Source: Octopus vulgaris
Taxonomy: Eukaryota
DNA length: 64,000 nucleotides
Direction of reading: 5' to 3'
NCBI GenBank assembly: GCA_951406725.2
Contig: OX597819.1
Span: 11,408,001 to 11,472,000, forward strand
Part shown: piece after piece, positions 48,557 through 49,443 of the stretch
Layout: the number at the start of each line of letters is the position of its first letter
Numbering within the stretch: the stretch's first letter is position 1
Notes under the pieces: model-generated
What the model was told of the DNA's origin: nothing
The model's database searches: none
Seen by the model: the letters and a program-made list of their open reading frames with translations, nothing else
Translations under genes and position numbers: made by a program

Positions 48557-49443
48557 TATATAATTAGGGCTTAGTAAAATAAATTACTTTGCCACATACT
48601 GAACTAAGTAGAAATAGCAGCCAAAAAAAATTTTTTTAGCAATTTCTACTACTTAAAGAAAAGAAAATTTCTCTCAGATAATGTTTACTCCAGACAAAAA
48701 AAAAAAATTTTTTTTGGCTGCTATTTCTACTTAGTTCAGTATGTGGCAAAGTAATTTATTTTACTAAGCCCTAATTATATAATGTAATATTTTGAATTCG
48801 CCTTAAATGGTCCTTTTACATACTGAACACTTGGTGAAATTGATTAATTAATTAATTTTACCCTCAATTGTTGATATTATAATTCATTTCTCTCTGTCAT
48901 ACTGCCTCGGTTCTCGCGGTTAAAATATAATGTTTGCTAGATAGACCACGTGGGTGGAAGGGGAGTGCAGAAATTTACGCCTGCGCATTTTGAATTTGTT
49001 GACACTGTTAGTTGGAGTGGTTCATCTGGAGCGACAAGTTCGTTGATAGGTAAAGTTCCTTCTTTTTAGTGTTTCCAAATCAAATTAAGAAATTTTGAGC
49101 TGACGAAAGAAATGCTGATTTTATTTGGCTAAACTTGAAACGTTGACGTACTCAAACGATCTATGTACTTGTGATATTTTTCTGTATTTACCTCCAAACC
49201 TCCGTGAGCTGTCTGGAGTAAACATTATCTGAGAGAAATTTTCTTTTCTTTAAGTAGTAGAAATTGCTAAAAAAATTTTTTTTGGCTGGTATTTCTACTT
49301 AGTTCAGTATGTGGCAAAGTAATTTATTTTACTAAGCCCTAATTATATAATGTAATATTTTGAATTCGCCTTAAATGGTCCTTTTACATACTGAACACTT
49401 GGTGAAATTGATTAATTAATTAATTTTACCCTCAATTGTTGAT
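48557..49443. mobile_element. 568-bp-period relative of the hammerhead repeat, with 5' inverted segment, in (TA)n
   Basis: Inverted piece about 48557-48696, then about 1.3 units (GAATTCGCC at 48794 and 49362). It ends at ACCCTCAATTGTTGA, like the 560-bp array. Confidence 0.9.
49094..49156 (+). ncRNA. Type I hammerhead ribozyme, predicted cleavage after 49150
   Basis: TTTGAG CTGACGA AAG...CTT GAAAC GT tg AC GTA CTCAAA: 6-bp stem I, full core, GUA triplet. Confidence 0.87.

Follow-up and report, generated by a model that had tools for sequence, protein, structure and literature searches.

The best explanation for the insertion at positions 48557-49445 of the window (the whole 64,000-nucleotide stretch of Octopus vulgaris DNA that was analysed), and probably the correct one, is a non-autonomous Penelope-like retroelement, or non-LTR retrozyme, that is copied from a circular RNA primed at two sites. 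The anatomy of the insertions, their copy number, their (TA)n targets, their two fixed 3' ends and the conservation of their ribozyme core are features of the genomic DNA itself. The class has already been published as animal retrozymes; what is new is the host, the length of the tail and the rule that each arm of an insertion takes one of the two ends.

The insertion consists of an inverted partial arm followed by 1.3 forward units, embedded in a (TA)n tract (Table 1). The same 5-bp duplication was present in the inverted arm and in the forward unit. The family B unit has a GC content of 34%. The list of open reading frames (ORFs) contained none of 150 aa or more in the insertion, and an ORF encoding a reverse transcriptase (RT) with a GIY-YIG domain was likewise absent from it; the insertion was therefore not classed as an autonomous Penelope-like element. 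A bacterial promoter scan, a type of scan not applicable here, returned nothing. The insertion contains a single hammerhead and lacks two consecutive hammerhead-bearing units, which are present in other family B loci and in family A within the window. Because it has only one hammerhead and a weakened stem II, this insertion is expected to serve poorly as a source of new copies. The earlier note had described both insertions of the window as an inverted partial unit followed by head-to-tail units, a layout that held, except that the forward part is limited to 1.3 units and one hammerhead at 48557-49445. It had also assigned this copy to a diverged 568-bp family. The diverged family, here called B, stands, with a middle region 67-77% identical to that of family A, whereas its consensus length is 564-565 bp, 568 bp being peculiar to the copy at 48878-49445.

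Table 1. Features of the insertion at 48557-49445 and of its sister insertion (window coordinates)
Feature	Position	Strand	Basis or remark
(TA)n target tract, left	48261..48556	.	
Inverted arm	48557..48696	-	Unit positions ~333-472; terminates at the short, tail-less 3' end
5'-truncated partial unit (392-568), pseudo-LTR-like repeat	48701..48877	+	99.4% identity to the end of the full unit
Full 568-bp family B unit, non-coding, reaching the full 3' end	48878..49445	+	Repeat comparison
Type I hammerhead ribozyme motif	49094..49156	+	Sequence and conservation; predicted cleavage after A49150 (GUA)
Self-complementary stem III strand	49140..49149	+	Pairing with a second copy via two G.U wobbles
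Conserved structured 3'-terminal region	49263..49445	+	57% invariant across four families; helices 8-13
~90-nt tail separating the two fixed 3' ends	49352..49445	+	
(TA)n target tract, right	49446..49519	.	
Sister family A insertion	37154..39692	.	Inverted 1.3 units, then 3.2 forward 560-bp units
Family A hammerhead cores	37397 (-), 38235, 38795, 39355 (+)		Within 37154..39692

All of the bases of the type I core (C3 U4 G5 A6 N G8 A9, G12 A13 A14 A15.1 and U16.1 H17) were present in the motif, in agreement with the letters and the predicted cut position proposed for it. Stem I is formed by 6 bp between 49094-49099 and 49151-49156, the CTGACGA core occupies 49100-49106, G12-A15.1 correspond to 49137-49140, and U16.1 and A17 are found at 49149 and 49150, respectively. 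Stem II comprises 3 bp in this copy and 4 bp in family B, plus a covarying extension; one pair is broken by an A at 49133, which is a T in the other listed family B copies and in four public runs. The G10.1-C11.1 pair, which is usual but not universal, is A-U in family B, U.U in family A, A.A in families C and D, and G-C in families E and F. Differences between families A and B had been thought to fall only at N7, the cleavage triplet and the loops. This proved too narrow, since the first stem II pair (U.U in A, A-U in B) and the length of stem III (2 nt longer in the B copy) also differ. The stem III strand has a predicted energy of -10.8 kcal/mol as a duplex versus +0.4 kcal/mol as a hairpin, and stem III is predicted to be stable only between two copies (dimer-type design). 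For this reason, a monomer spanning 49080-49170 would likely give weak or negative cleavage even if the ribozyme were functional. The 63-nt motif alone folded no better than shuffled sequences, and Rfam returned no hammerhead match, either at the gathering score or at E values of up to 10, and no other credible match.

Relatives of the unit were sought in 2.8 Gb of genome sequence in 227 contigs, the window included. The full-unit search gave 1,543 candidates, of which the best 40 were scored, revealing 39 non-self places at 95-97% identity. The family B loop II had 300 exact matches and two terminal motifs had 2,726 and 4,971, with none for any of the reversed controls. Families A and B are ~79% identical overall and 91% identical over the last 180 nt. 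Further families were recruited by looser terminal patterns that did not involve the hammerhead; for family E, more copies were subsequently added with a query containing the hammerhead, family C is based largely on one array, and family D is based on one natural copy. Family I was linked via its terminal region to family E (E value of 4e-21). Literature searches revealed no paper on these octopus families, which Repbase or Dfam, outside that search, may hold; one article mentions Penelope in octopus and, in its available text, no ribozyme (PMC8967140).

Assembled contigs of the four public runs (four organism labels, one each) covered 30/30 bins of the unit. Ten A>G places were observed in run X1, which we guess to be RNA, several of them at 49309-49335 of the window in the terminal region, and such places were scarce in two large runs. 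They could be due to A-to-I editing of double-stranded RNA formed by the inverted arms or to other families or alleles. In a local duplication of ~7 kb (loci L242 and L243, G000:C1:33.467-33.480 Mb), each copy carries two insertions, one from family B and the other from family A. Two other repeats were observed in the window. At 9009-14010, a Rep/helicase coding region, apparently Helitron-like from its motif, is interrupted so that it comprises several ORFs; a tandem repeat of 147 bp is found at its 5' end. A dispersed 184-bp tandemly duplicated repeat, presumably SINE-like, was found at 17718-18087, 20229-20602 and 50940-51288.

Comparison of families A, B, C and E, which are 60-78% identical, revealed that 10/10 core positions were invariant, versus 32% of the positions in the middle of the unit (P ~1e-5), and the ribozyme core bases were invariant over families A-E. 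The genomic sequences thus support selection on the catalytic core across families, as claimed by the earlier note. The claim rests mostly on the data added by families C, D and E, because families A and B alone gave 10/10 core positions versus 70% flank identity (P ~0.03). At the level of single copies per locus, recruited by the terminal motif, mismatches affected 1/341 core cells versus 431/9,854 flank cells, with a P value of 8e-6 that is inflated because subfamily variants are shared among copies. Counted by site, the same test gave 0/22 in the core versus 71/690 in the flank, with ~2 expected in the core. The comparison of core and flank across genomic relatives, suggested at the outset as a check, therefore came out in favor of the core between families and revealed no core excess within family B alone (mismatches in 1/99 core versus 39/2,773 flank cells). 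The claim that the hammerhead is not a chance motif in a satellite was borne out on both counts: the pattern spanning families A and B had 2,075 exact matches in the genome versus 0 for its reversed control, and the repeat is a dispersed mobile element with fixed 3' ends.

Conservation extended to pairing. Stem I variants covaried, with sequences altered on both sides, and the stem III strand was fully self-complementary in 13 and at least 86% self-complementary in 18 of the 26 listed hammerhead types, in a tally for which the pattern search had demanded the closing pair. Inspection by eye of the core of family I, for which 100 of 111 matches were listed, revealed ~61 U3-A8, ~35 U3.G8, 2 C3-G8 and 2 C3.A8 combinations. 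U3-A8 is a compensatory core change in this family, and this covariation is known from Penelope-like elements (PMC4209133). The U3.G8 and C3.A8 cores may cleave poorly, and the dispersal of U3.G8 copies suggests that constraint on the core is not absolute. A dedicated literature search on U3A8 and U3G8 cores returned nothing. Nor is constraint confined to the ribozyme: it also covers the terminal domain and the long stems.

When the family consensuses were folded as circles, z scores ranged from -5.7 to -7.0 for the strand carrying the hammerhead and from -2.3 to -3.7 for the other strand (15 shuffles each). Among 13 natural copies, 18 of the 78 predicted pairs were altered on both sides and 97% of the cells paired. 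The structure was derived from this same 13-copy test alignment of related sequences, and the shuffle controls overstate covariation for that reason. In the predicted fold, the two extremities of the unit pair with each other. The terminal 180 nt were the 57% invariant part, and the region at 49263-49445 is likely to be the domain for recognition and priming by the RT.

Insertion anatomy was analyzed in loci that a terminal motif had recruited, 55 of which remained after removal of one duplicate. Two fixed 3' ends were observed, the short end lying ~90 nt before the full end. The 39 two-armed insertions comprised 35 with a full and a short end, 3 with a full and another end, and 1 with two full ends. 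The full and short ends were thus located on opposite arms in 35/39 insertions; recruitment, which needs a tail somewhere in the locus, disfavors the combination of two short ends but not that of two full ends. Among 19 one-armed insertions, 13 terminated at the full end, 3 at the short end and 3 elsewhere. The 5' breaks were scattered along the unit. Of 29 breaks near the cleavage site, 5 fell in a preset interval (P 0.12), only 2 started exactly at the cut, and the family B loci with junctions read had no break at that site. A TA tract was present at both ends of 52/62 segments in 56 loci (scored by eye), versus 7-8% of random 32-nt windows. In seven family A arrays, the units differed by 0-0.9% on average within an array versus 6% between arrays, as expected if one template is copied repeatedly.

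GIY-YIG matches were abundant in the genome, as judged from the 150 candidates scored out of 6,136. They included a young element of 4,712 bp (locus L130:1456-6167; also L121-L129, L138 and L139), many copies of which are 98-100% identical, with an intact RT plus GIY-YIG ORF and an extra upstream ORF of 466 aa. This Neptune-like element is inserted in TA targets, its two ends are separated by a 45-nt tail, and close to its end there is a hammerhead-like motif of the U3-A8 type. Its linker contains a cysteine motif such as has been reported for Neptune (PMC8557442). Its ends had no BLAST match to families A-E, and we consider it a candidate trans partner of the ribozyme repeat. No ORF-bearing parent sharing the ends of the units was present among 50 GIY-YIG loci compared with them, 28 further loci of an older Penelope-like family had no shared ends, and a scan of 40 loci of diverged families for a Penelope-like ORF revealed no parent. 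ORF pieces near L201, L224, L191, L182 and L293 were rejected as parents and regarded as neighbors, on the basis of intervening TA tracts or of a wrong orientation. A tandem triplication of 4,036 bp at G000:C9 belongs to the older, degraded family (L214-L229), which displays U3-A8 hammerhead-like motifs with a palindromic stem III. Another hammerhead-bearing repeat family is represented at locus L099: its type I hammerhead, unrelated to those above, is canonical, has the G10.1-C11.1 pair as well as a palindromic stem III, and occurs twice, in inverted orientation.

According to the mechanism that we favor, tandem copies would be transcribed, and neighboring hammerheads would pair via stem III to release unit-length RNA, which would then be circularized. 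A Penelope-type enzyme combining RT and GIY-YIG activities, supplied in trans, would cut the TA tract, and each cut strand would prime reverse transcription at its own one of two sites that lie ~90 nt from each other within the structured terminal domain. Such two-site priming would generate one forward and one inverted arm, and more than one round of copying on the circle would generate head-to-tail units. A further proposal, which we advance only tentatively and regard as somewhat doubtful, is that the units form an ancient, independent lineage of structured circular RNAs resembling viroids. The matched parent of this lineage would have disappeared long ago, radiation under selection for fold and catalysis would have produced at least nine families, and any active Neptune-type enzyme would be borrowed. 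The one-end-per-arm rule would then mean that the Penelope tail and the 5' inversion both arise when a dimeric enzyme primes the two cut strands, each at a different RNA site.

The circular template could be replaced by an uncleaved linear multimer in the same non-autonomous Penelope-like element, with the hammerhead kept for another step (read-through trimming or RNA stability) or cleaving rarely. We regard this as unlikely. Retention of the core and of stem III self-complementarity across families that are 60-65% identical argues against it, as does the occurrence of arrays of up to ~10 units with array-specific variants; the predicted pairing of unit end with unit start points in the same direction, though tandem RNA permits it too. 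The linear template is nonetheless consistent with in vitro data, as hammerhead mutations left insertion unchanged and none of the reads ended at the cut site (PMC11167929). Transcription of a homogeneous array would also yield near-identical units, and copies with U3.G8 cores are dispersed. Mobilization by another enzyme, either the RT of a LINE or a rolling-circle replicase of the Helitron type, is very improbable. No sequence-matched Penelope-like parent was present among the loci read, LINE-like RT fragments were present in fetched loci, and the window contains the Helitron-like element; however, no poly(A) end was present in the junctions read, the partial tandems, inverted 5' arms, one-end tail and microsatellite targeting form the set described for Penelope-like elements (PMC8557442), and the two start sites agree with those reported in PMC11167929. 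A passive satellite that originated from an old Penelope-like end and was spread by recombination at the DNA level, with the hammerhead as a relic, would fit the arrays of up to ~10 units and a core that decays like the flank within family B, but this scarcely credible reading is already largely refuted by the dispersal of insertions whose 3' ends are fixed and whose 5' breaks are random, the strand-asymmetric folding, the covariation and the compensatory change within the core.

The non-autonomous Penelope-like element proposed here resembles the metazoan non-LTR retrozymes, for which Penelope-like elements were proposed as drivers (Cervera and de la Pena 2020, PMC7229834). These are likewise non-coding, low-GC tandem repeats containing a type I hammerhead with a weak stem III that acts as a dimer, as here, and the basal pair of stem II is U.U in axolotl HHR_Amex2 and in family A alike. 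Their units are described as 150-450 bp in length and as forming long arrays, whereas the units of the octopus families, which are known here from DNA, measure about 530-590 nt and occur mostly in short two-armed insertions. A 2026 preprint (bioRxiv 10.64898/2026.07.22.740005) reached the same conclusion, that retrozymes are non-autonomous Penelope-like sequences, for family sizes of 51-972 bp, a range that includes the octopus unit. It reports cleavage of only 1/9 dimers and uses two consecutive hammerhead-bearing units as the criterion for active copies. The evidence described in that preprint consists of co-occurrence and pLTR homology in vertebrates, whereas ours comes from insertion anatomy, and we found no pLTR-matched parent.

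Partial tandems, an inverted 5'-truncated arm, a tail at either end and (TA)n targets are shared with the Neptune and Naiad clades of Penelope-like elements, and multicopy head-to-tail forms, as observed here, are described for non-autonomous Chlamys such as MRC1 (PMC8557442). In that account, Penelope-like elements have a tail of 30-40 bp, versus ~90 nt in the octopus units, which are devoid of an ORF, and Naiads are without canonical hammerheads. The palindromic stem III, the dimer-type design and the U3-A8 variant are common to the octopus families and the hammerheads of Penelope-like elements described in PMC4209133; unlike in the latter and in Poseidon (PMC11167929), G10.1-C11.1 is not kept in families A-D. 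For Poseidon from Anolis, the tail is delimited by two internal RT start sites and extension takes place on both target strands (PMC11167929); that each arm has its own start site, as the ends of the octopus insertions suggest, is not stated in the available text of that article.

The octopus families provide a natural test set for two questions. One is whether Penelope-like enzymes mobilize animal retrozymes, for which the support here comes from the anatomy of the insertions and not from co-occurrence; the other concerns the origin of the tail and of the inversions of Penelope-like elements. Both can be tested directly in vitro, since the same genome offers a non-coding template of 560 nt, with two mapped ends and many natural variants, as well as a young, intact RT-endonuclease. 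The natural series of C3-G8, U3.G8 and U3-A8 cores is useful for the study of hammerhead evolution.
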